NCBI GenBank assembly: GCA_963804955.1
Contig: CAWDSQ010000008.1
Location: 113,757 to 177,756, forward strand
Length of the DNA: 64,000 nt
Direction of reading: 5' to 3'
From: an uncultured delta proteobacterium
Lineage (GTDB): Bacteria > Desulfobacterota > WTBG01 > CAIYCZ01 > CAIRTM01
Both the position numbers and the translations under genes were made by a program. The number at the start of each line of letters is the position of its first letter. Position 1 is the stretch's first letter. Positions 46,484 through 58,691 of the stretch are shown here, in pieces. The notes below the pieces were generated by a model. The model was given only the letters and a program-made list of their open reading frames with translations, was not told where the DNA came from and made no database searches.

Positions 46484-48043
46484 GTGAAAAAAACAATACC
46501 CGTAAAAAAAATGATTTTATATGGGTACACACTTTCCATCGTTTTGTGCATTGCCATAAGCGTATTCTCGATAGTGCAGTTCAAAACGACGATTCGTGCA
46601 ACGGAAAAAATGTCTGGTGGAACTGTACCGTTTTTGCTGAAGGTAAAAGATACGGCAAAGGATATTCCTTTGCTGCGGTGCTATGAAAAAGATTTTTTCA
46701 TGAACATGGGGAATCCTGATGTTCAGGAAAGTAAGCTTAAAAATTTCAATGCCGCACAGGCCCAGATACACGCAAAGCTAGATGAACTCTCAAAAATGCT
46801 TGCCGATATACAGGGTGCAGCAGATGACACAGCACAGCACCTTGCCTCTGCAAAGGGACATCTTGATCGGTACTCCCGGGGCTTTTACGATGTTGTACGG
46901 GAAACACGGGAAAACGCCGGCGGCACGACTGCATCATCAAACCTGCTTATGGAAAAACACGCCCCGCAGAGCGCTGCTGCTGAACAAAACTTCAGCGCCA
47001 TCAGTACGGCAGTAACACAGCTGTATGCTGCTAATTCTGCAGAACTCATGCAGCAGGCGGACCGCTCCTATATGATAATTCTTGTTACACTCCTTGCCGG
47101 CATCATTTTGCTGACGACTATGTCCTATTCTGTGGGGGCATATATCGTTGGGCATCTTACCCTCGCAATGGATTGCCTTAAGGAAACCTCAGGGGAAGTG
47201 AGCAGAGCTTCAATGCAAATTGCGGCCTCAAGCATGCAGATGGCCAATGGGGCAAATGACCAGGCGGCATCCATCCAAGTAACCTCGGCATCACTTGGGG
47301 TGATGTCTGCCATGACAGGGCAGAATGCCGGCAATGCCCGCCTGGCAAATGACATAATCAAGGAAGCAACTGATGCCGCCCTGCGGGGGGAGAGTGCCAT
47401 TCAGGATATGGTTGCGTCTATGGGGCGCATCAAATCATCGACCGGCGAAACCTCAAAAATATTGAAAACTATTGAGGAAATAGCCTTTCAGACAAACATC
47501 CTGGCACTCAATGCGGCCATAGAGGCGGCGCGCGCAGGAGAAGTCGGGCAGGGATTTGCGGCTGTTGCCAACGAGGTACGCAACCTTGCCAACCGCAGCG
47601 CTGAAGCCGCACAAATAACAGCCGGCCTGCTTGATGAATCACAGGCAAACGCAGACAACGGCACGCGGCTTGCTGGGGAGATATCAAAGCTGTTCGGCAC
47701 AATTGTAGGTCAAATCAAAAATGTCAACGAACTGTCCTGCGAGGTCGCTGCCGGCAACAATGAACAGGCAGGGGGCATTGACCAGATCAATCTGGCCCTT
47801 GCAAAGGTCACGGGGGTTACCCATGACAATGCAGCTAATGCAGAAGAATCATCAGCCTTCTGCCAGGAACTTGCATCGCAGGCCAGAGCCCTTGAAAATA
47901 TTGTAATTGATATTACAGCGCTGATTGGTAGCAAGTCGCTTGCGGGAAGGCGGGGTGATGCCAGTTTGAGTGCCGTAATATGGAATTTGGGCAGCAACAG
48001 CCAAGCATATGCACAAGAGGTTATATTTAGCGCTCAGATATAG
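46484..48043 (+). CDS. methyl-accepting chemotaxis protein
   Basis: two TM segments; [34 protein letters not shown]. Confidence 0.93.
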
Positions 48044-48322
48044 TAGTTCAGAGTAAGGCGTCAAACGACCCCTCCCGCCTCCCGCTGTCTTGGCCGCTTT
48101 TCACGTCCCGCCCATTGGGGATCACTGTTTCAGGTATTTACCTTAGCTCACCTCAACCCACGTCCTATATTCGCCCCATCAAAAAGCGATTTTTGTTTGT
48201 GGTTTGTGGGGTATATTTTGGTGAAGCTCTTTGAAGGCGGTTCATTAGGGTGTACAACGTCCCGGCAAGTGACTAGTTGCACTTCAGTGGATTCTGGTGT
48301 CATTTGGAAATTGCAACAGCAG

Positions 48323-48718: not shown

Positions 48719-49746
48719 TACCGATCCTCCTGATCGTTTTTTGACTTGCAGTGATTTTATCGGTAGCCGGACTTAACACTTAAGTTGCTTAGGCAGATGT
48801 TGTTAATGGGAAATGCGCTCCCTTTAAGAACATACATTTGATGCCCATATATGGCTTGCCACCATGTGTTCATTAGGAGTAAATCTTTATGACAACTAGT
48901 GTTCATTTTGAACATATTGGCTGAAATAAACCCGCTCTTTTATGAGTAACCCAGAGTTGAATTGCGGATATGTATATAATAAAAAACAATTCTTTTTTGT
49001 ACTGGAATTTAAGAAAAAATAAGTTTTTTCAATATTATTATCGAAGCTATTAGCGTTTTTCAGGTTACTTTATCCTTATAAATGAATAGAATTTTTATGG
49101 CACAGTATGTGTATATTATAAAGATAAGTGAACTCCAGTGACAATGTGAGATGCAGTTACTGTTATTGATAAAAGATCGACAAGTTTTAGCAACCATAAG
49201 AGAGGGAGATAAACGATCATGAGTCCACTCATTGCAGCTAAACAAACCGGAAAAGAAATTGTAATAGCCATTTTGACATCCATTGGCTCCTTTTTCAGTC
49301 GGTTGTTTCGGAGAAAACAGCTGGAGCAGCAGCGAGCAAAAGATAGGGGATGTTGTTTTTGACCTAGAGAACCGTTTACGGAAGGTAACAATCGAGCTTC
49401 TGCGCGCCAAGGAGTTATCACCATCAAGGGTCCAGGAACTGACGCAAGAGAAGAACAAGCTGTTTGCGGAAATTGATGCCTTGAACCGTACCACTGGGGT
49501 TAATAGCACCCTCTGCTCATCAGTTCTTTAATAAGTTTATTGCACGCGCTCCTTCAGCTTTCATTTCCGTCAAAGTTTTGCGATGGCAACGAAAGATGAG
49601 ATGTGTGCGACACAGCATTAATGTTTTGGCTGGATTATCTAAAAATCACGCGATAAGTTGAGTTTAACTCCGAAGAAAAATTGCTTCTTACGCCAGGCAC
49701 AGATTATGTTGTAAAATTTTAAACCAGGACAGAAACAATGCAGAAC

Positions 49747-50110
49747 ATGGAAGAATCTATATATGCAAAGATGCGCGACAAGGAACGCTTCAATATCGAC
49801 CTCAAAGCTACCTACATTATCAAGGGGCAGGGTACACAGCATCAGGAATGCCAGATCGCCAATCTGAGCTCAAGTGGTGCTACAGTCCTACTTCCCGCTC
49901 ACTGAAAGTCTTAAGAAAGGAGCTGTTATTGTAATGGATATTTCCATACCGAACACGATTATGCATATTCCTGCTGAGGCCGCAATCATGTGGACCAAGC
50001 AGCGCCCCAATGAATTGATAAGCGGCATCAGGTTCAAGGCCATACTCAGTGCTACCATGATCCAACAACTCGTTAAAAAGACGTTGGAAGTATCTTATGC
50101 GGTCCAGTAA
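49747..50110 (+). CDS. PilZ-domain (c-di-GMP binding) protein (frameshift ~49885)
   Basis: RDKER (RxxxR) and NLSSSG (D/NxSxxG) motifs, then W...GIRF. Confidence 0.75.
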
Positions 50111-50162
50111 AAAGTCGTAATGGTAAATTTGAGTAACGAGTCAAGGACTCAATTATATTGTG
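50102..50162 (+). repeat. island arm F0 (degenerate forward copy)
   Basis: gtccagtaa-aaagt-CGTAATGGTAAATTTG-N16-CTCAATTATATTGTG. Confidence 0.55.
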
Positions 50163-50285
50163 ATGTGATGAAAGCTGAAGTTCATTGGCGGTAAGAAATA
50201 ACAGCGCACTTGTCGTTTAGTATGGCGATGTTAAAAAGATCGGAGTGTCCGACACTCTTAAATTCCGGCTTTATAGTTGGGCAAT

Positions 50286-50849
50286 TCATTTCTTTCCGGC
50301 CAACAATGCAACCAGCAACTTGTTTTCTTGCATCATCAGATTCATCATCTTCAGTTGGGCATTATTAGCTTGATATATCTGATAGTAAACCGATTGGGCC
50401 TTATCGGAATTGACAGCTTTCACGTAGTCTGTAAAAGTCTCAGCCCTTTTGGTTTCTATTTCCATGACTACCTTTAATGCCTCAGCAGAGGCTTCCTGCC
50501 GCTGCATCCGCTCATCGATGCTAAAATATAAGTCTACTGTTAGCAGCCCTGTGATGATCAATAGCAGGACCGTTGAGGCCTTGATACGCCTGGTTTTTTC
50601 TTGCTGGTGATGTTCACTGGGGCGAACTTTATCTTTCGTTCTTTGGGTTCTTATTGGTTCTTTTTGCTGTATGTTTAATCCAGCTATATCTTCCGGCTTT
50701 TCATTTTTCAATTCTTCAGCCCCAATCTTTTGCCTTTCTTCCAATTTTGCAAAATGTTTTTCGATAATCACACCGCATTCTGGACATATATTAAAATCTT
50801 CATCTGCGCTGTAGTAATTGCATTTGGGACAAAACGTGGTGTTTCCCAT
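50286..50849 (-). CDS. hypothetical zinc-ribbon membrane protein
   Basis: N-terminal CPKC..CPECG, one TM segment, coiled-coil C-terminus. Confidence 0.7.
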   Translation of the reverse strand: MGNTTFCPKCNYYSADEDFNICPECGVIIEKHFAKLEERQKIGAEELKNEKPEDIAGLNIQQKEPIRTQRTKDKVRPSEHHQQEKTRRIKASTVLLLIITGLLTVDLYFSIDERMQRQEASAEALKVVMEIETKRAETFTDYVKAVNSDKAQSVYYQIYQANNAQLKMMNLMMQENKLLVALLAGKK

Positions 50850-51019
50850 AGAGCCGTCACCCCTATTTAAATAGTTACTCCGATACTTTATAGAGAACTT
50901 TGTAATTTTTAACTCTAGACCTACAGACCATATTGCAAATGTTAAGAATATTGTCAAATCTATTCGGTCTAATTGTTGGAATGAATATTTTTGGGTTCTC
51001 GTGCGTAAAAAGGCATAAT

Positions 51020-51064
51020 TTCAACATATAGCAGTTATGCCTTTTTCTTAAAGTGCATATTACA
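51020..51064 (-). repeat. island arm R0 (inverted copy, upstream of the integrase)
   Basis: TTCAACATATAGCA-gttatgcctttttctt-AAAGTGCATATTACA-tgata; aligns with 55917-55968. Confidence 0.7.
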
Positions 51065-51187
51065 TGATACGTCTACCTATCGCTTTCTCTATAGCATAGT
51101 CTACATTACAAATCAGTAACCTTGTAAGGTCATAGAATCAGGACCTTACGTATATTTATTAACATCATGCATGAAGGGAGCTGTATT

Positions 51188-52025
51188 ATGAAAGTATCAC
51201 AGGCAGAAAAATGTTTCATTGATTACCACAGGCTAAATTCTAAAAAAAAATACGCTTATAAATTATGAGGCCCTGTTATCAAAATTCCTTGTAGGATTTG
51301 GCGAGAGGGAATTAGGCACTATTACCTCCGAAGAGATTTTGTTCTTTTTAACCAACCAGAGCAATAGCAAAAAGCAATCCACAAAAAGATTACGTTATAC
51401 CCTCCTGAAATCATTTTTCAATTTTATTGAAAATACGGTCGATAGCAAAATACAAAATCCTTGCAATACCCCGTTATTAAAAAAAATGTTCAGGATAAGA
51501 CAGACTGTCCAATGGTCAATCCTGGAAAAGGAATCAGTGGATGAAATGATATTCAAAACAGTGCGCCCGAGAAACCGACTTTTGCTGGAACTCATGGCCC
51601 GTGGCGGTATGAGAATTGGTGAAGTGTTAAAAATAAGGGCGAAAGATATTGAGGAGCGAAAAATCATCCTGCATGAACCCAAAAGCGGCAAGGAAACTGA
51701 AGGTGTATTCATTCCGCAAAAAATAGCTGACCGGCTGAAAGACTATATTCGCAACGAGGGGATCAAGGCTGATCAGAGGGTTTTTCCGTTAGTGTATGCA
51801 GGAGCAAGAGCAGTTGTGCGCGAGGCTGGCAAACTGGCAGGAATTACGCTTACTCCTCATGATCTGAGACGGCATGCTGCAACATTTGCTTCACGATCAG
51901 GAACACCATTAGAAATTGTAAGCAAAGTTATTTTAAGACATTCAAACTTGGCGACAACGCAGCGATATTTGGGCAAGGTCAGTGATGCAGAAGCAGTGCG
52001 GTGGATTGAACATCTTTATGGCTAA
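51188..52025 (+). CDS. tyrosine recombinase / site-specific integrase (frameshift in the A-run at 51242-51250)
   Basis: SAM-like N-terminus MKVSQA..NY..LLSKF; catalytic GMRIGE (R), KSGK (K), HDLRRH (HxxR), LRHSN..TTQRY (H, Y). Confidence 0.93.
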
Positions 52026-52032
52026 GAATCAA

Positions 52033-52072
52033 GGGCCAGGGGTGAATGTGTTATGGCCTTTGCCCCTGGCCC
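52033..52072 (+). terminator. hairpin after the integrase stop
   Basis: gggccagggg ... cccctggccc 10-bp stem; no clear U-tract. Confidence 0.45.
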
Positions 52073-52089
52073 ATACATAACGCAAAATG

Positions 52090-52193
52090 TGCATATTGCT
52101 TTTGGTAACCTTGAATTTTCAGGGGTCTATTTGTCCAGTAAGAGAGCCGTAGTGTTGAATTTTTGGGGCAAATCAAGAGCACAAGATGTTGGG
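52090..52193 (+). repeat. island repeat copy 1 (conserved ~60-bp flank plus arm F1)
   Basis: tgcatatt..tttggtaaccttgaatttt..tttgtccagtaagagagc-CGTAGTGTTGAATTTT-N16-CACAAGATGTTGGG. Confidence 0.85.
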
Positions 52194-52589
52194 ATATATC
52201 CCGCTTCCGCCTTTTCCTATTTTCCCATCCGTCCAAGATTTTTCTTATTTACTAAATATTCTATAGTAAAAAACATGAAATAATTTTTTTTTGTGCTAAA
52301 TAGAATTTATAAAGGCCCTTGTCAATGGGGGGTAGTGGATTTTGATTTTGATACCTGAAATCATCTGATGTTCCTTTTTCTTAGTTCCCCAAATTAATTT
52401 AATCAATAGCAGTACTAACAGCATCCCCTGAAACGGGGGTGTTTTTTGTACTTTCTTCGTAACAAAGAGATAACCACCGTTCTCATGTTTTGCGTAAAAA
52501 CGCAGGGACGTGTTGTAGGTGTGCAAAGAAAATAGGGAGGGACGGCATGTACTTTTCCCGTTTCACCTTTAATTAAAGGAGGTGTTTCT

Positions 52590-54098
52590 ATGAAGAAAGT
52601 TGTTTTTGCCCTATTGTGCATCGTGGTTTGTGCATTGTGCTCATCTACTGCCAAGGCTTGGCTGGTTCCAGACACGGGTGACCCGAACGAGCGCAACTGC
52701 AACACCCATTCCTACACTGATCTCGGCAGCGGTATCATTAAAGACCATGTTACCGGACTTATGTGGCAGAAAGCGACAGCCCCGGGGACCTATACCTGGC
52801 AGCAGGCAGTGGATTACTGCAATAATCTCAGTCTCGGCGGCCATACAGACTGGCATTTGCCCACCGTTAAGGAAATATCAACTCTTGTGGATGTCAGTAT
52901 CAAGTTTCCTGGTCCCCTTATCAACTCGACCTATTTTCCTAACACTGAACAGTCCGATTACTGGTCGTCTACGACCTTCTCTGATACTCCAGACTCCGCG
53001 TATTTTATGGATTTCGAGAACGGTATCGTCTACGGCTACAAAGATAAAATTGAAAATTCATATGTGCGTGCGGTGCGGGGTAATTCAGCACCTAATAATT
53101 TCGTCGATAATGGCGATGGCACAATAACCGATACCAGTACAGGCCTTATGTGGGAAAAATTAGCGCAATCGACTACCTATTTTTGGACCCAGGCAAAGGA
53201 CTATTGTGAAAACCTGATCCTTGGGGAAAAGAGCGACTGGCGGCTCCCAACAAGAAACGAGTTGCAGACGATAGTTGATTATACTCGCAAAAAACCGTCT
53301 ATTGATACCACTTTCTTTCCAGACACCGCGGGGGTGTCCGATTACGATTACTGGTCGTCTACTAAGTACGCTAACGATCCAGACGAAACAGAACAAGTAT
53401 GGTACGTGAACTTCTATAGTGGCTACATCAACCACACGGGTAAGAGGAATTACAACTTTGTTCGCGCGGTGCGTGCGGGACTGTGCGGGCCATTCTATTG
53501 TCCGATAACTGATGTGCTTGGTGCGGATAATCCGAAACTTAAAAATCTGCGGGCATTTCGCGATAGCAAATTTGCCCAAAATACGGTAGGCCGAAAAATT
53601 ATAGCAATCTATTACAACAACGCTGATAGCATAAATGCCGCCCTTGAGAAGAGCCCAGCTCTAAGGACAGTTTTCAAAAGAGTTCTTGAAGTGATTGCAC
53701 CGATTTTGGAAGGTAGAAAAGTTTCACATTTGAAACCCCACAAGGAGGAAGCCATGAAAAGGAAACTCATATTGGTTGCTCTTGTAGCGGCATTAATGTC
53801 TGGATGCATATATATGCCCGCTGGATTTGCTCCGTCATCAACACCTGTAGACAATAAAAAAATTACAGTTATTGGTCATGCTGAAGGAAGCACAGGGTAT
53901 TTTTCACTTTTTAGCGTTATCCCTTTCGGAAGTCCCGATTATGAAGGCGCTATTAAAGATGCAACCGCATCAAAACCAGATGGCAGTGCCTTGATAAATG
54001 TTCATTCTTATACCAGATTCTTATGGGTTGTTGTTGGGCATATACAGACCCTGTATGTTCAAGGTGATGTTGTGCGTTTGTCTGATAAAACAAAATGA
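52590..54098 (+). CDS. secreted tandem DUF1566/Lcl (C-type-lectin-like) protein with a CTERM-like domain; reads in frame into a downstream lipoprotein
   Basis: signal peptide; two D..TGLMW..W..A..YC..L.LG...DW.LPT..E..YWSST..VRAVR repeats; CP....LG....L..LR.FRD..G..II.IYY tail. Confidence 0.85.
   Translation: MKKVVFALLCIVVCALCSSTAKAWLVPDTGDPNERNCNTHSYTDLGSGIIKDHVTGLMWQKATAPGTYTWQQAVDYCNNLSLGGHTDWHLPTVKEISTLVDVSIKFPGPLINSTYFPNTEQSDYWSSTTFSDTPDSAYFMDFENGIVYGYKDKIENSYVRAVRGNSAPNNFVDNGDGTITDTSTGLMWEKLAQSTTYFWTQAKDYCENLILGEKSDWRLPTRNELQTIVDYTRKKPSIDTTFFPDTAGVSDYDYWSSTKYANDPDETEQVWYVNFYSGYINHTGKRNYNFVRAVRAGLCGPFYCPITDVLGADNPKLKNLRAFRDSKFAQNTVGRKIIAIYYNNADSINAALEKSPALRTVFKRVLEVIAPILEGRKVSHLKPHKEEAMKRKLILVALVAALMSGCIYMPAGFAPSSTPVDNKKITVIGHAEGSTGYFSLFSVIPFGSPDYEGAIKDATASKPDGSALINVHSYTRFLWVVVGHIQTLYVQGDVVRLSDKTK
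53754..54098 (+). CDS. putative small lipoprotein with its own RBS
   Basis: aaggagg-aagcc-ATG; MKRKLILVALVAALMSGC lipobox. Confidence 0.7.
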   Translation: MKRKLILVALVAALMSGCIYMPAGFAPSSTPVDNKKITVIGHAEGSTGYFSLFSVIPFGSPDYEGAIKDATASKPDGSALINVHSYTRFLWVVVGHIQTLYVQGDVVRLSDKTK

Positions 54099-54211
54099 GA
54101 ATTAGAATTTTATAATCCTGCTTTAACCATTTTTTAATTATTCACATGCTATATTTTAATCAGAATAAAGAGAGAAATTGAGCAGCAAGAAAACCGTTCT
54201 TTAAACTGATA

Positions 54212-54357
54212 GTGCAGGGAGTGTGTTCCCCCCCCTTTTCATGCTCCCTGCACGAATCAGAACCCTAAAGCGAAAGGATTGTTGCAGAGTAGTAGAAGTA
54301 CAGAATTCCTCAAAAACGTGCAGGGAGAATGTTCCCCCCCCTCATTTTCCCTGCACG
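54212..54357 (+). ncRNA. candidate sRNA with two poly-C-loop hairpins
   Basis: gtgcagggagtgtg-ttC8tttt-catgctccctgcac and cgtgcagggagaatg-ttC8t-cattttccctgcacg, with pairing-preserving differences. Confidence 0.5.
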
Positions 54358-54468
54358 CCTCCTCCTTCAAGATACTTTCACATTCCGATAAATTTTAATC
54401 AGGTACTGGGTCATTAAATACGGGCTTGTTCTAGCTCTGCTATGATCGCAGTTAACCCACGCTGTTTT

Positions 54469-54575
54469 TGCATATTACGTTTGATAATCTTGAATTTTCG
54501 GGATTTTGTTTTGTCCAATCATTAAGAGCCGTAGTGTGGAGTTTTGGCGGGGTGGCAATGGCTCTAGATATTGTG
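54469..54575 (+). repeat. island repeat copy 2 (flank plus arm F2)
   Basis: tgcatattacgtttgataatcttgaattttcgggattttgttttgtcca..agagc-CGTAGTGTGGAGTTTT-N16-CTCTAGATATTGTG. Confidence 0.85.
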
Positions 54576-54735
54576 ATACGTCCTATTTATAATCAGAAGT
54601 CCCGCCTCGTTCCGACCTCGTATGCTGTCCAACCCAAAGTCCCACCTTTTTTGAGAAGAAGGTATTGTCGTTGACCTAAATATTAAATGTCATTATATGT
54701 GAACTATTACTACTACCTTTTAAGAAGGAGGGGAG

Positions 54736-55879
54736 ATGGCGAAAAAACGGACTGCTCAACCACACAGTACCGAAGCGCAGAAACTTCTTGATGCAAAGCT
54801 GCTTGCCTACTGCGCTGTGGCTTCAGGGGCGCTGCTGGCGGCACCGCCGGCCAAGAGGCTGCGGTTGTTTACAGCGGAGTGAAAAATCTGTCGGTCGGGA
54901 GATCCAACCCTACAGTATCAGTGGATCTTGACAGTAACGGTGTAAATGATGTGCGGTTTGCAGCTGCAAACTATCGTAGTTTCTATGCCGGTTATAAGGT
55001 TTTGCTAAGCCCGCTTAATGATAATTACTTTGATGGCAGTACCTTTGTTCGCTGTATTATGAGTATTGTGTCCCACAGAGCATCAAAGCGGTTAACCTTC
55101 CTGCTGCAGCTTCAATAGTTCCCTTTCTCTGCCCTGGAAGCACGATGAGGGTATCCTCAATATGCTTATCCCATATAGTCCTAATTGGGGTTCATTTATA
55201 AACACAACAGGTTATATAGGGGTGAAGTTGGACATCCTCAGTGAGAAGCATTTCGGCTGGATACAGTATCATGGAACGCTTCCCAGGTACTTCCACCCCT
55301 GTGTTCTGGCTGTAATGAAGCCAGCGGCACCATCATAGACTGGGCCTATGAGAGCACACCCGATACTCCCATTACGGCCGGACAGTTAACAGCCCTAGTT
55401 GATACAGACGGTCACGGTACTTCCCATGCCTCTGACAACTGCCCGGCAGTAGCCAACCCGCAGCAGCTTGATGCCGATAGTGATGGAGTGGGCGATGTGC
55501 GTGCGACAACGAACCTGGCTGCGGAGGCTGCGGTCTGCCTGCCAGTATATTGATACAGACGGAGATGGCATACAGAATTATTATGACAACTGCCCCTCTA
55601 CAGCCAACCCTCTGCAGAAAGATGCCGATGACGATGGCATAGGTGACACGTGCGACCCGACACCTGGTTGCGGTGGAGGGTGCGGCCAGCAGCCGTTATG
55701 CGAGCCGCCGGCAGATACAGATAGCGATTATGTCATGGACTCACTAGACAACTGCCCGAGCGACTTCAATCCCAACCAGCTTGACGCCAATGGTAACGGC
55801 ACAGGTGATTGCTGTGAACACTGACCCCGGCTGCGGGGGGGTAGGCCAGCCAGTATGCGATGATTTTTGCTCGTTGTAA
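54736..55879 (+). CDS. secreted thrombospondin type-3 (Ca-binding) repeat protein (multiply frameshifted)
   Basis: aaggagg RBS; GYIGVK..FGWIQY..IDWAYE domain; repeated DxDxDG..DNCP...NP.Q.D.DxDG.GD.C. Confidence 0.75.
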
Positions 55880-55916
55880 TTGAGTAAGCGATTGGTTAAA
55901 ATATTCAAGGCCTAAC

Positions 55917-56106
55917 TACTAGATATAGTGGTTGGGCCTTTTCTCTAAAGAGTCAACATTACGTGATAACGCTTTTACTGCAGTACCACAGTTGATTTAT
56001 TTTATGATACGTTTGGTAATGTTGAATTTTGAGGATTTTGTTTTGTCCAGTTAGAGAGCCGTAATGTGGACTTTTGGGCAGCAACTCATGGGCACAACAT
56101 ATGGTA
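55917..56106. repeat. back-to-back arms R2 + 96-bp spacer + F3 (~190-bp imperfect inverted repeat)
   Basis: TACTAGATATAGTG-N17-AAGAGTCAACATTACG ... gtttggtaatgttgaatttt..ttttgtccagttagagagc-CGTAATGTGGACTTTT-N17-CACAACATATGGTA. Confidence 0.85.
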
Positions 56107-56281
56107 TCATTTATATGTACTTCTTGAATAAAACTTGGCTTCATCCTTTGTTGGGCGTTTATTCAACCTTTAAATTGTTTCCATCATTAAAAACATTTAA
56201 TGCAATATACTACTATTTATATGATAAATCTGAGCAGTGTCCCTTGTGAAAAAAAATAATCAACTTTCATGAATCGGTATC

Positions 56282-58224
56282 ATGAGCTTTCTGAAAAAGA
56301 ATCTTTCTTTCCTTAGCCCCCTGCATCCCATCATTATCTTTTATCTTCTTGGACTGGTGATCTTTTTTATTTTCAGGTCAGCGCTCTGCCTGCAATATTA
56401 TGCAAGAGTCATGGAAGTTGAGAACAGTCTTCTTAGCTTTGCCATAGGGGTAAGGGTTGATACTATTCTGCTCTGTTATTGTCTGATGCTACCGACACTT
56501 GCTCTTCTTATCCTTCCAGCCCCTGTAATCAGCAAAATACGCTGTTTATTCTCACTGTACTTTGCACTGCTTGTCTCTTTATTTGTATTTCTGGAACTAG
56601 CCACGTTCCCGTTTCTGGCAGAATTTGATACCCGGCCTGATCGTGTTTTTCTGGAACATGCCGTGCAGATCCGAGAGGTTGCGAGCATGATTTTGAAGGG
56701 GTATACGATACCGCTGCTTTTTACTGTATCGGTAACACTGTTGATAAGCTGGGGCAGCTTCAGATTTTTTCAGGCAGTTTTTGAAGGCTTTATTCCTAAT
56801 GGACTTGCAAAAAAAGTGCTTTTTTTCTTTATCATTACGCCACTTCTGGCTTATGGCGCTCGCTCAAGTTCAAGCTTTGGGGATCCTGCAAATCCCAGTG
56901 ATTTTGCATTTTCTAAAAGCCATCTGGTAAACCAGCTTTGTCTTAATACAACCTATAATCTAGTGTATGAGTATTGCAGCCAGAAAAATGCGGAAAAAGA
57001 CCCGGTAAAATTTTATGGTAACATGGATACGCAGGAAATGCTGGACAGGGTGCGCAAAACCGCAAACATATCAAAAGAGGGCTGTACAAACCCCAACATT
57101 CCGCTGCTTCATAAACAGCAGTCAAGCGTTCAGCGAACAAGCCCCGTCAATTTAGTTATCATAGTAGAAGAGAGTTTGGGCGCTGAATTTGTGGGCTGTC
57201 TCGGGGGGCTTCCCTTAACCCCCAACTTTGATGCGCTCAGTAAAGAGGGACTTTTGTTTACCCGCATGTATGCTACCGGCACACGCACGCTCAGAGGCCT
57301 TGAAGCCGTCATTTCGGGATTTCTTCCCACGCCAGCTAAAAGTGTTTTTAAACTTGGACTGTCAAAAGAAACTTCTTCACCATTGCTGAACTTTTTGAAA
57401 GAGGCGGGTATATAACTGAGTTTATCTATGGCGGGGAAAGCAATTTTGACAACATGCATTCGTTTTGTCTGAACAATGGTTTTCAGAACATTTATGATGA
57501 GAAAAACATACCAGCACCGGTCTTCAAGGGGAGCTGGGGGGTCTCGGATGAAGATCTTTTTGCAAAAGCAAATGAGGTATTCAAATCTCATGGCAGAAAG
57601 CCATTTTTTGCGCTGCTGCTTACTACATCCAATCATGATCCTTTTGAATTTCCCGACGGCCGGATTGAACTGTATGAAAAGCCGAAAATGACCCGGAACA
57701 ATGCTATCAAGTATGCGGATTACGCGCTAGGAAAATTTTTTGAGTCGGCAAAAAAAGAAGCCTATTACAGTAATACGATATTTTTGATTATCGCCGACCA
57801 CAGTACACGGCTTGGCGGGAAAGACCTGGTGCCGATACACAAATTCCATATTCCGGCCTTGATTATCGGACCCGATGTACAACCGGGAACATTTGACAGG
57901 GTGGCAAGTCAGATTGATATGCCGACGACCCTTCTTGATTTAATGGGGTTCAGTGCCGAGGTGCCTCTTATCGGAAGATCCCTTGCCCATCTTTCTGACA
58001 GTGTCAAAGGCCGGGCTATCATCCAGTATGGCGAAGACAATGTGTATCTGGAAGATGATCAGGCGGTTTTGCACCGACCCAAGAAAGAAGCAGCACAGTT
58101 CACGTACAAGGATGAAAGATTGATCCCGACACCGCTTGATCCTGAGCTTTTAAAAAACGCACTTGCACATGCACTGCTGCCGGGATACCTCTATTATAAC
58201 TTTTTACACCGCCTTCCTGAGTAG
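56282..58224 (+). CDS. LTA-synthase-family membrane sulfatase / phosphoglycerol transferase (frameshift ~57375)
   Basis: five TM segments; IVEESLG, TGTRT.RG, TTSNHDPF, IADH, SQIDMPTTL. Confidence 0.9.
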
Positions 58225-58329
58225 ACTGTGCGCAACTGGGAATTTGAAAACATAGCCCTAAGGATGGAAGGCTAGTAGTTCTTTCCTGTTGAAAAGTCGA
58301 ATAAAAGCGAAGTTATAGCGGCTCCGCTT

Positions 58330-58375
58330 TTCTATATATTGTGGTCAGGACAAATCAGAAAAAGTCCACACTACG
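58330..58375 (-). repeat. island arm R3 (inverted copy)
   Basis: TTCTATATATTGTG-N16-AAAAGTCCACACTACG-tgata; the 16-mer reverse complement is CGTAGTGTGGACTTTT. Confidence 0.85.
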
Positions 58376-58499
58376 TGATATATGTTGGCTGAGCAGTCCG
58401 CAAAAATTTATTACAGGTTTGCTCTGATAATATATCATTGTCCGCTAAAGCCGGGCAGGCTGTGGTTGGTCCGCCGCAGCGGACTTTGTCCAAACAAAA

Positions 58500-58691
58500 G
58501 ACTTTTCGTTCTGGTACTAATTAGTGGCTAAACGAAAACCCGGAACCATACATGTGTCGGGTTCGCCCTTATGCCGGTACTTCTTCGTAAGCAATTGTTT
58601 TTGCGCAGGGTGGTTTAAGGTGCGAACCCCATCGATTTCTTCCGGGCTTAACCCAAAATACATGACTTTTCGTTCAGGTGCGAATTAGCGG
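58500..58691. repeat. REP/MITE-like composite: 28-bp direct repeats enclosing a long hairpin
   Basis: gacttttcgttctggtactaattagtgg (58500) vs gacttttcgttcaggtgcgaattagcgg (58664), 24/28 identical; inner cccggaa/ttccggg and gggttcgc/gcgaaccc stems. Confidence 0.65.

Follow-up and report, generated by a model that had tools for sequence, protein, structure and literature searches.

Integrons, among them sedentary chromosomal integrons and clusters of attC sites lacking integron integrases (CALINs), combine an IntI integrase, an attI site and gene cassettes bounded by attC sites. To our knowledge, no other bacterial platform for collecting and swapping single genes through site-specific recombination is well understood. 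A related layout is found in the pdif modules of Acinetobacter plasmids, in which gene modules are flanked by inverted XerC/XerD sites, 28-bp dif-like sequences with an 11-6-11 arrangement, and depend on the host XerC/XerD. A requirement for programmed slippage or frameshifting is known from insertion sequences (ISs) of the IS1 and IS3 types, the transposase of which is made only in this way. In this study, we analyzed a 64,000-nt stretch of DNA (hereafter, the window; positions 113,757 to 177,756 of contig CAWDSQ010000008.1, assembly GCA_963804955.1) from an uncultured delta proteobacterium, in which a tyrosine recombinase (integrase) gene lies in a row of cargo genes bordered by a repeated bipartite sequence, the arm, present in forward (F) and inverted (R) copies. 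We regard the locus as a new form of recombinase-driven cassette platform, in which the tie between enzyme and site is still circumstantial. The reading that we favor, with a probability of about 0.5, is an array of genus-specific, self-contained gene cassettes exchanged by a XerA-like recombinase nested among them. A search of the literature on tyrosine recombinase slippage, DUF1566 cargo and integron-like cassette arrays, supplementary files aside, returned no description of such a system.

Like integrons, the locus and its relatives contain rows of single-gene units that share a boundary site beside a tyrosine recombinase gene; relatives carry different cargo at a given position, other parts of the genome hold scattered single units, and the site next to the recombinase gene marks the border between conserved and variable DNA. 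Unlike in integrons, the recombinase is without the IntI insertion and falls far short of the IntI models in its scores, attC-type ends are absent, and the boundary is a bipartite arm of ~47 bp that is inverted at the two cassette ends. In addition, the cassettes bear their own 5' regions and terminators, and the recombinase gene is nested in a junction, co-oriented with the cassettes and recoded at an A run. The resemblance to pdif modules lies in gene modules placed between inverted recombinase sites, a presumed Xer-type mover and changes of context exactly at the sites, whereas the arms differ from pdif sites in their length (~47 bp), bipartite structure and long flanking similarity, the candidate enzyme, with its gene in the junction, is XerA-like, recoded and dedicated to the system, and the setting is chromosomal and genome-wide. 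The 11-6-11 palindrome is absent from the cassette boundaries, where the arms consist of a 16-mer, 16–17 bp and a box. With the IS1 and IS3 types, the recombinase gene shares a compact (~1.1-kb) module with sharp ends that is found in unrelated contexts and yields its enzyme only after a homopolymer slip; however, it encodes a tyrosine recombinase, not a DDE transposase, and shows neither terminal inverted repeats of its own nor a target duplication. According to their description, SEs, or strand-biased circularizing integrative elements, need an intA-tfp-intB operon and srap, have a median length of 15.7 kb and one or two copies per replicon, and their tfp and srap were detected in Gammaproteobacteria only (PMC10214605). 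Compared with that account, our locus is similar in its tyrosine-recombinase mobile units with defined termini and cargo genes and in the circular intermediate proposed, and different in having one 278-aa recombinase with dozens of 1–3 kb units; open reading frame (ORF) and Pfam scans of the window found no tfp-, intB- or srap-like ORF beside the single recombinase ORF. A classification of simple Xer-like recombinases, including an integron-like subgroup, appears in a preprint (bioRxiv 10.1101/542381).

The 16-mer of the arms, CGTARTGTKGANTTTT, occurs exactly at 52148, 54530 and 56060 on the forward strand and at 58360–58375 on the reverse strand, with one mismatch at 55948–55963 (reverse strand) and with three mismatches at 50116 (F0). 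At three or fewer mismatches, the window contains 14 matches against 4.96 expected, and none of 100 shuffles reached 14. Separate profiles were made for F and R arms, some of which served as seeds, and hits were accepted at E ≤ 1e-3. R0 was too degenerate for the pattern search and was recovered at E = 6e-4 by an R profile built without it, while the F profile did not recover F0 at E ≤ 10. A preliminary description, made from these letters alone, had listed seven arms; five are strong, R0 is weak and F0 is unsupported by the profile, and the arms as such are confirmed. The same description was accurate as to a 16–17-bp spacer and a 14-mer box in the arms, a ~60-bp flank ending in TTTGTCCA..AGAGC before F1–F3, TGATA after all three R arms of the window, and a DUF1566 unit with no closing R arm, for which the profile search found none either. 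It had further placed three cargo genes each within an F...R pair. That layout reads as stated, except that the first unit is doubtful as a cassette: F0 is not significant, the Zn-ribbon gene runs opposite to the other cargo, and this gene and R0 form a block syntenic with a sister genome (G003:C48). The junction around the integrase gene has R0 as its left border. A further, weaker 16-mer-like copy (GGTAAYNTTGAATTTT) is located 45 bp upstream of each of F1, F2 and F3. R2 folds into a terminator-like hairpin followed by a U-run (-24.2 kcal/mol, z -5.0), as does R0 (z -2.5); the R3 arm forms no more than a small hairpin, and no significant fold was found for the F arms. An Rfam search of the window identified no family, the match to RAGATH-25 at 52424–52494 being below threshold (E = 0.24). 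Separately, an F-like arm (two mismatches in the 16-mer, profile E = 0.0012) was observed at 47974–48022, inside the 3' end of a methyl-accepting chemotaxis protein gene.

The genome that holds the window (G000; 36 contigs, 87% complete) was compared with four sister genomes (G001–G004), together the genus set of five, and with 36 relatives from other genera. In G000, 34 matches to the 16-mer were found at one mismatch or fewer, compared with 4 for a reversed control pattern. Exact copies number 16, 9, 12, 42 and 16 in the five genus genomes; outside the genus, one of the 36 relatives has a match, in a single copy. A scan of 185,579 species genomes for the arm pattern found true members in four records of metagenome-assembled genomes (MAGs) of uncultured delta-proteobacteria/Thermodesulfobacteriota and in one contig binned elsewhere, and the remaining hits amounted to a chance number or to an unrelated repeat; the three F-pattern matches in one Acidobacteriota chromosome were rejected as an unrelated repeat. 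The profiles detected 28 F and 23 R arms in G000, including 8 F and 10 R arms that were not seeds, and these pair into at least 20 units of 0.7–2.8 kb spread over at least 15 contigs. The arms are thus a dispersed family, genome-wide and genus-wide, rather than a feature of this locus. With regard to their surroundings, the cassette at G000:C13 (L184, 3400–3490 and 5990–6070) is located between two tRNA genes, its start coinciding with the 3' end of the first. Two F arms, at C13:129088 and C22:100484, likewise adjoin tRNA genes, so that the system may have a preference for DNA beside such genes.

The ends of the units follow a small set of patterns. AGAGC precedes the F arms, its final three bases (AGC) being present in 16 of the 18 F-class arms of G000 and in none of the 8 R-class arms, and R arms are followed by TGAYA. 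In tandem units, a stretch of ~96 bp connects an R arm with the F arm that comes next. The outer flank of a lone R arm is a shortened version of this junction, ending in ..TTGTCCG. Lone F arms have flanks of two types, type A corresponding to the right part of the junction and type B to an inverted copy of the R flank; type-B units have inverted ends of 90–190 bp. The type-A flank next to the integrase gene (52086–52147) belongs to a direct-repeat family with 54465–54517 and 55997–56049, and the 96-bp interior of the R2/F3 junction holds a second, 16-mer-like copy at 56015. Units with F arms only also occur, from F1 to F2 in the window and in G003:C34, where four F arms stand in a row. At 54212–54362, a ~45-bp hairpin repeat (GTGCAGGGAG..CCCCCCCC..CTCCCTGCAC) is present twice, the two copies being 106 bp apart, and in G003:C6 each of the two integrase genes is followed by this same pair. 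Unit 1 (52107–54112) is therefore an insertion relative to that genome, in which the stretch is missing between the integrase tail and the hairpin repeats. We considered two other accounts of the junction. A folded, attC-like site found no support in the three complete junctions of G000, a small sample, in which the R and F 16-mers differ at one to three positions without compensation and the 17-bp spacers are non-complementary. Derivation of the short junction from the integrase module by deletion was rejected, as the tail of the module (the type-A flank) is clearly homologous and the head is not.

The genes between the arms are diverse. All paired cargo in G000 is oriented from F to R. Outside the window, we scanned 23 ORFs from 17 units: five matched Lcl_C, three TSP_3 and three LRR_5 (two ORFs had both TSP_3 and LRR_5), one each matched NHL, sulfatase, superoxide dismutase (SOD), bilin reductase, FMN reductase, PQQ_2 and TPR, one had only a DUF2142 match below the cut-off, and six had no family. 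None of the 23 is a transposase or a recombinase, and the Pfam scan of the window detected no transposase. The cargo consists mostly of secreted or envelope repeat proteins. Because the arms accompany unrelated genes, simple paralogue expansion is excluded as the source of the units. The cassettes carry 150–450 bp of their own upstream DNA, F arms lying 100–450 bp upstream of the cargo start codons, and most of them end in a hairpin. A consensus promoter scan stayed at background (22 sites against 17.9 expected) and missed the R hairpins. Three observations concern individual cargo genes. The DUF1566 protein and the lipoprotein of unit 1 (ATG at 53754, lipobox LMSGC) share one frame with no intervening stop, the result of a genuine fusion or of the loss of a stop codon. 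At the C-terminus of the DUF1566 protein, ~60 residues (..LRAFRDSKFAQNTVGRKIIAIYYNN..ALRTVFKRVLEVIAPIL; window 53512–53704) form a module that is common to many cargo proteins of different families in all five genomes and is covered by no Pfam family; it may be a sorting or anchoring signal. The gene of the lipoteichoic acid (LTA)-synthase-like enzyme has a 1-nt gap near 57364. The nearly identical copies in the window and in G003:C34 bear different single-base gaps, which could be assembly errors or independent decay, and the paralogue at G000:C26 is intact (647 aa).

Comparison between genomes revealed that the cargo changes while the arms and their flanks persist, as the preliminary description had led one to expect. 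Synteny between G003:C48 and the window begins at 48248 and includes R0 with its TGATA, the homology stops exactly after this TGATA, and the sister sequence then becomes the right flank of a cassette at G000:C5. Likewise, a cassette at G003:C37 is 88% identical to G000:C5:4241–5785 up to the hairpin and switches at the 16-mer to 95% identity with the R3 flank of the window and the DNA to its right (from 58360); the LTA-synthase cassette occupies in the window the place held by a different cassette in G003:C37. The match between the cassette at G000:C5:240694 and G003:C22 spans only from 7 nt before the F 16-mer to 10 nt after the R 16-mer. In G001, G003 and G004, just 61–64 bp stand in place of the C13 cassette and its flanks (2.46 kb), and no target duplication was found at the boundaries of this empty site, the one site compared at base level. 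At C16, C10 and C26, no clean empty site was obtained, the sister genomes being rearranged or split over contigs there. The LTA-synthase block (56120–58229) is 99.67% identical to G003:C34, whereas the flanks of the two genomes are 87–94% identical. Assembled contigs of four other samples, in which no run contains more than 27% of the sampled words, break at arm edges, with loose ends at 54517, 55907, 55965 and 56076–56082. A joint from 58223 back to 54471, found in two runs, is the arrangement seen in G003:C34 and is no proof of a circle. The joints 52108>56054 and 54507>56044 were rejected as recombination products, as they are explained by the similarity of one junction to another.

The integrase gene is single-copy in G000. 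Its product matches Pfam PF00589 (73.9 bits), and its best NCBIfam model is XerA_Arch at 114 bits, under the cut-off of 220, so that it is a relative and not an equivalog of that family. A profile of six family members found the solved structures of XerA (4A8E and 5HXY) and no IntI at E ≤ 1e-5. In the alignment of these six members (numbering of the 254-aa main frame), R118, K141, H200, R203, H227 and Y236 are invariant; the protein has a core-binding and a catalytic domain with this R-K-H-R-H-Y set and no arm-binding domain. The IntI models TIGR02249 and NF011946 gave 52.6 bits (cut-off 265) and 40.9 bits (cut-off 435), respectively, and align just residues 2–164 of 254, in agreement with the earlier remark that the protein looks too short for the IntI-specific insertion. 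Judged by these comparisons, the enzyme is a two-domain XerA-like tyrosine recombinase, not an IntI. Relatives are encoded in at least 431 metagenome stretches, and the family is widespread in sediment and freshwater anaerobes. Separately, at G002:C379 (5585–7163; L026), two other adjoining tyrosine recombinase genes lie directly outside a cassette F arm; these are 25–26% identical to the window integrase by tblastn.

The reading frame of the integrase gene shifts by one base at a run of nine A residues (A9; 51244–51252), which had at first been handled as a frameshift to be corrected. We examined 85 homologues with a 5' end (76 metagenome loci, some of them near-duplicates, and 9 genome copies; four further loci without a 5' end were excluded). 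One base too many was found in 54 of them (53 with an A run) and one base too few in 17, while 3 are in frame with an A run and 11 are in frame without one. Among the genes with an A run, 70 of 73 need a slip, and the shift in the window is thus a conserved recoding site rather than damage. The N-terminal peptide encoded upstream of the run is conserved, which indicates that the region before the run is translated. Since templates one base too long and one base too short are both present, transcriptional slippage would fit better than a fixed ribosomal shift and is the likeliest route of recoding.

Several observations connect this gene with the arms. In the window, the integrase gene is located between R0 and F1; in G003:C6, the order is F..R-integrase-F..R-integrase-F..R; and in all three copies of the genus the gene lies within an R/F junction. 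The arms occur genome-wide, and they are linked to the integrase family by this position. The ~60 bp between the integrase terminator and F1 are the type-A flank. A heptamer, ATRGCMG, was found 89–142 nt past the integrase stop in 28 of 71 family loci (background, 0.078 sites per 220 nt), and in the window AGAGCCG starts 117 nt past the stop, at the same place. By this comparison, the F-side flank is homologous to a site conserved ~110 nt past the integrase stop across the family. Related module pairs (78–97% identical) often stop aligning ~100 nt before the ATG and ~120 nt past the stop, with up to 3 kb of flank available. Such sharp ends, with kilobases of flank to align, indicate that the integrase module is a discrete ~1.1-kb unit in variable DNA. 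In a genome from another family of the same class (G036), three copies of the module were found, one of which sits at an exact position within a junction repeat. This repeat has at least 20 copies and closes a row of genes for secreted proteins. At this locus (L022; G036:C4), the secreted-protein genes end in a dockerin-like C-terminal module and a terminator, which make up the ~345-bp junction repeat, and in one array junction ..CTTGCAAT is immediately followed by the nested integrase module.

The favored reading builds on what we observed: how the units are built and distributed, how diverse their cargo is, that breakpoints fall at the 16-mer, where the module lies and that its recoding is conserved; the recombinase as actor, the place of crossover and a circular intermediate are what we infer. 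In this array of exchangeable cassettes, each cassette consists of its own 5' region, one or two genes, which in most cases encode secreted or envelope repeat proteins, and usually a terminator. Its left border is an F arm (AGAGC, then 16-mer, 17 bp and box) and its right border an R arm (box or terminator hairpin, 17 bp and inverted 16-mer, then TGAYA), with the ~96-bp junction between cassettes having as its right part the conserved 3' tail of the ~1.1-kb recombinase module. Full-length enzyme arises only after the loss of one A at the A9 run, and transcriptional slippage as the likeliest route would keep it scarce. The recombinase may bind the 16-mers and carry out strand exchange there or next to them. 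Two junctions would recombine through arms of like orientation (F with F, or R with R) to release a circle of one cassette and one junction, and in the reverse reaction the circle would insert at another arm, as in the attC × attC and attC × attI reactions of integrons. The outcome would be the building of arrays, the scattering of single cassettes over the chromosome and the swapping of flanks between loci. Recombination between like-oriented arms would explain the F-only units, the circular permutation that relates tandem junctions to both flanks of lone type-A units, the start of the array after the integrase tail and its end in a half junction. Taken together, the interpretation given in the preliminary description is partly supported: the system is not an integron and its arms are linked to the integrase family, while the action of the enzyme on the arms is suggested by circumstantial links at the sequence level.

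A number of findings weigh against the exchange of cassettes by this recombinase. The window-type integrase was not found in three of the five genus genomes (76–90% complete): G001 and G004 have none, and G002 has only recombinases that are 27–28% identical. Repeated sites within 3 kb of the integrase were detected in just five metagenome loci, the contigs being mostly short. When we looked for an inverted repeat in the DNA outside the module, the mean own-locus score was 16.5 against 16.2 across loci, with 2 of 55 above the cross-locus 95th percentile, and family-wide insertion of the module into a palindromic site was rejected because own-locus and cross-locus scores are equal. The arms are unlike a canonical core site with two half-sites of 11–13 bp around 6–8 bp. 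The F and R arms of one cassette are inverted, and simple recombination of F with R would invert the cassette, not excise it; no inverted form was found. The type-B units with inverted flanks are not yet explained by the circle model, and the similarity of their ends extends 75–140 bp beyond the 16-mer, which is transposon-like. The 99.67% identical LTA-synthase block leaves out the arms, implying that some exchange took place inside them. Finally, in the assembled contigs of the other samples, arms were joined to other DNA, and no clear circle or empty junction was seen.

An alternative that we regard as unlikely is that the arms are long terminal inverted repeats of a non-autonomous cargo transposon (of the miniature inverted-repeat transposable element (MITE) or 'transporter IS' type) moved by an unidentified transposase, with the recombinase as a mere neighbor or passenger. 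Terminal inverted repeats are present, the 16-mer and box being inverted at both ends, and the imperfect inverted ends reach 75–140 bp past the 16-mer with several 16-mer-like copies. The dispersal of the units over at least 15 contigs, the single integrase copy for about 50 arms and the three genus genomes in which no integrase was found would also suit a transposon. However, a transposase is found neither among the 23 ORFs of 17 units nor in the window, a genome-wide transposase census not being part of this check, and no target-site duplication is seen at the sole empty site that was compared. In tandem junctions, one shared 96-bp interior stands in place of two full ends. The F-side flank corresponds to the tail of the integrase module, which is conserved in hundreds of relatives, and the integrase is at the same junction position in its three genus copies; both argue against a passenger.

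Somewhat less probable still is that the arms are passive repeats, R being a shared terminator and F an operator or leader of a surface-protein regulon, which were spread by duplication and reshuffled by homologous recombination without a dedicated enzyme. The terminator-like hairpins of R2 and R0, the distance of the F arms from the cargo starts (100–450 bp), the functional coherence of the mostly secreted cargo and the end of the 99.67% identical block within the arms, not at the 16-mer, are all compatible with this. Nevertheless, the R 16-mer lies beyond the hairpin and U-run, outside the transcript; unrelated genes have this one 16-mer, inverted, at their two ends; neither a significant fold nor an Rfam match was found for the F arms; and some of the cargo, for example the bilin reductase and FMN reductase, is cytoplasmic. 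Moreover, two of the context switches map to a 16-bp element to within a few bases, and an element of this length is insufficient for homologous exchange to be efficient.

Inversion systems, such as the R64 shufflon with Rci, the vsa/vsp/vpma loci of Mycoplasma with Xer1 and the invertons of Bacteroides, likewise combine a small tyrosine recombinase with many inverted sites around surface-protein genes. A switch of this kind, with the recombinase flipping cassettes or junctions between inverted 16-mers to toggle surface genes, would suit the 16-mers that are inverted around every cassette and every junction and the surface-exposed cargo. Small Xer-like recombinases drive such switches in other bacteria, and the preprint mentioned above (bioRxiv 10.1101/542381) names PsrA. 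Yet we consider it very improbable: none of the 26 R arms in the consensus assemblies of five genomes carries the F-type AGC prefix, all being of the R type, and the separation of this prefix between the F-class and R-class arms of G000 and the uniform F-to-R direction of paired cargo agree with that count. The variation, moreover, is one of presence, absence and context, which inversion does not explain, and the shuffling by inversion that the preliminary description had allowed for is accordingly not borne out. A diverged classical integron with IntI, attI and attC cassettes is hardly tenable, and membership in that class was rejected: single-gene units do form a row beside a tyrosine recombinase that has weak partial matches to the integron-integrase models, but those matches are confined to residues 2–164, the structure profile finds XerA and no IntI, the cassettes bring their own 5' regions and terminators, the integrase gene is inside a junction in the direction of the cassettes, and RYYYAAC...GTTRRRY pairs at 50000–58600 number 2 against 1.99 in 200 shuffles, both being one palindromic stretch read on two strands; the preliminary description had likewise seen no attC ends.

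The coordinates of the features are collected in Table 1.

Table 1. Features of the cassette locus, given in window coordinates
Feature	Position	Strand	Evidence and remarks
F0, degenerate F-like arm, doubtful member	50116..50166	+	3 mismatches in 16-mer; unrecovered by F profile
Zn-ribbon membrane protein gene	50286..50852	-	ORF; Zn-ribbon Pfam matches below cut-off; against the F-to-R direction
R0 arm	51009..51069	-	Hairpin 51008-51045; degenerate 16-mer 51049-51064, then TGATA
Xer/XerA-like tyrosine recombinase, ~278 aa	51188..52025	+	ATG frame to A9 run 51244-51252; main frame one base off
Type-A flank, 3' tail of integrase module	52086..52147	+	Ends in AGAGC; directly abuts F1
F1 arm (16-mer, spacer, box)	52148..52198	+	Exact 16-mer; F profile E=1e-14; profile seed
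Unit 1 cargo, two Lcl_C/DUF1566 domains, then lipoprotein ORF	52590..54098	+	502-aa ORF; Lcl_C 224.6 bits
Type-A flank and F2 arm	54465..54580	+	Direct repeat; exact 16-mer; F profile E=7e-13
Unit 2 cargo, thrombospondin type-3 repeat protein	54737..55880	+	Multi-frame ORF pieces; TSP_3 55.1 bits on 55468-55821 piece
Complete junction	55907..56110	+	R2 (terminator hairpin, 16-mer 55948-55963), TGATA, 96-bp interior, AGAGC, F3 (56060-56110)
Unit 3 cargo, sulfatase-family (LTA-synthase-like) membrane enzyme	56282..58224	+	Sulfatase Pfam matches on both pieces
R3 arm (16-mer 58360-58375) and outer flank ending ..ATTGTCCG	58320..58452	-	Exact 16-mer; R profile E=8e-12; array end

Two further repeats are located next to the array. 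Just past its right end, at 58517–58688, is a MITE-like element of ~165 bp with 22-bp inverted ends (CTAATTAGTGGCTAAACGAAAA / TTTTCGTTCAGGTGCGAATTAG), of which dozens of copies with 80–94% identity are present in all four sister genomes; it is absent from G003 at the orthologous spot, and one copy lies inside the C13 cassette. To the left of F0, at 49709–50082, is a pair of small PilZ-like genes that has many ~80% identical family copies in the sister genomes and no Pfam match at E ≤ 0.01.

We put forward tentatively that the locus represents a second cassette platform, independent of integrons, in which a recoded recombinase module nested in a bipartite junction site may capture, excise and scatter self-expressed genes, and which may have colonized the whole chromosome and may drive the turnover of surface proteins. 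If this is true, a different recombinase and a different site would serve genes that bring their own expression signals, at a chromosome-wide scale, and cassette-based genome plasticity would have arisen more than once. The slip at the A run would be an unusual control of a tyrosine recombinase, and the small recombinase–site pair would be a new candidate tool. For the uncultured anaerobes that carry it, such a system would explain the rapid turnover of their surface proteins.

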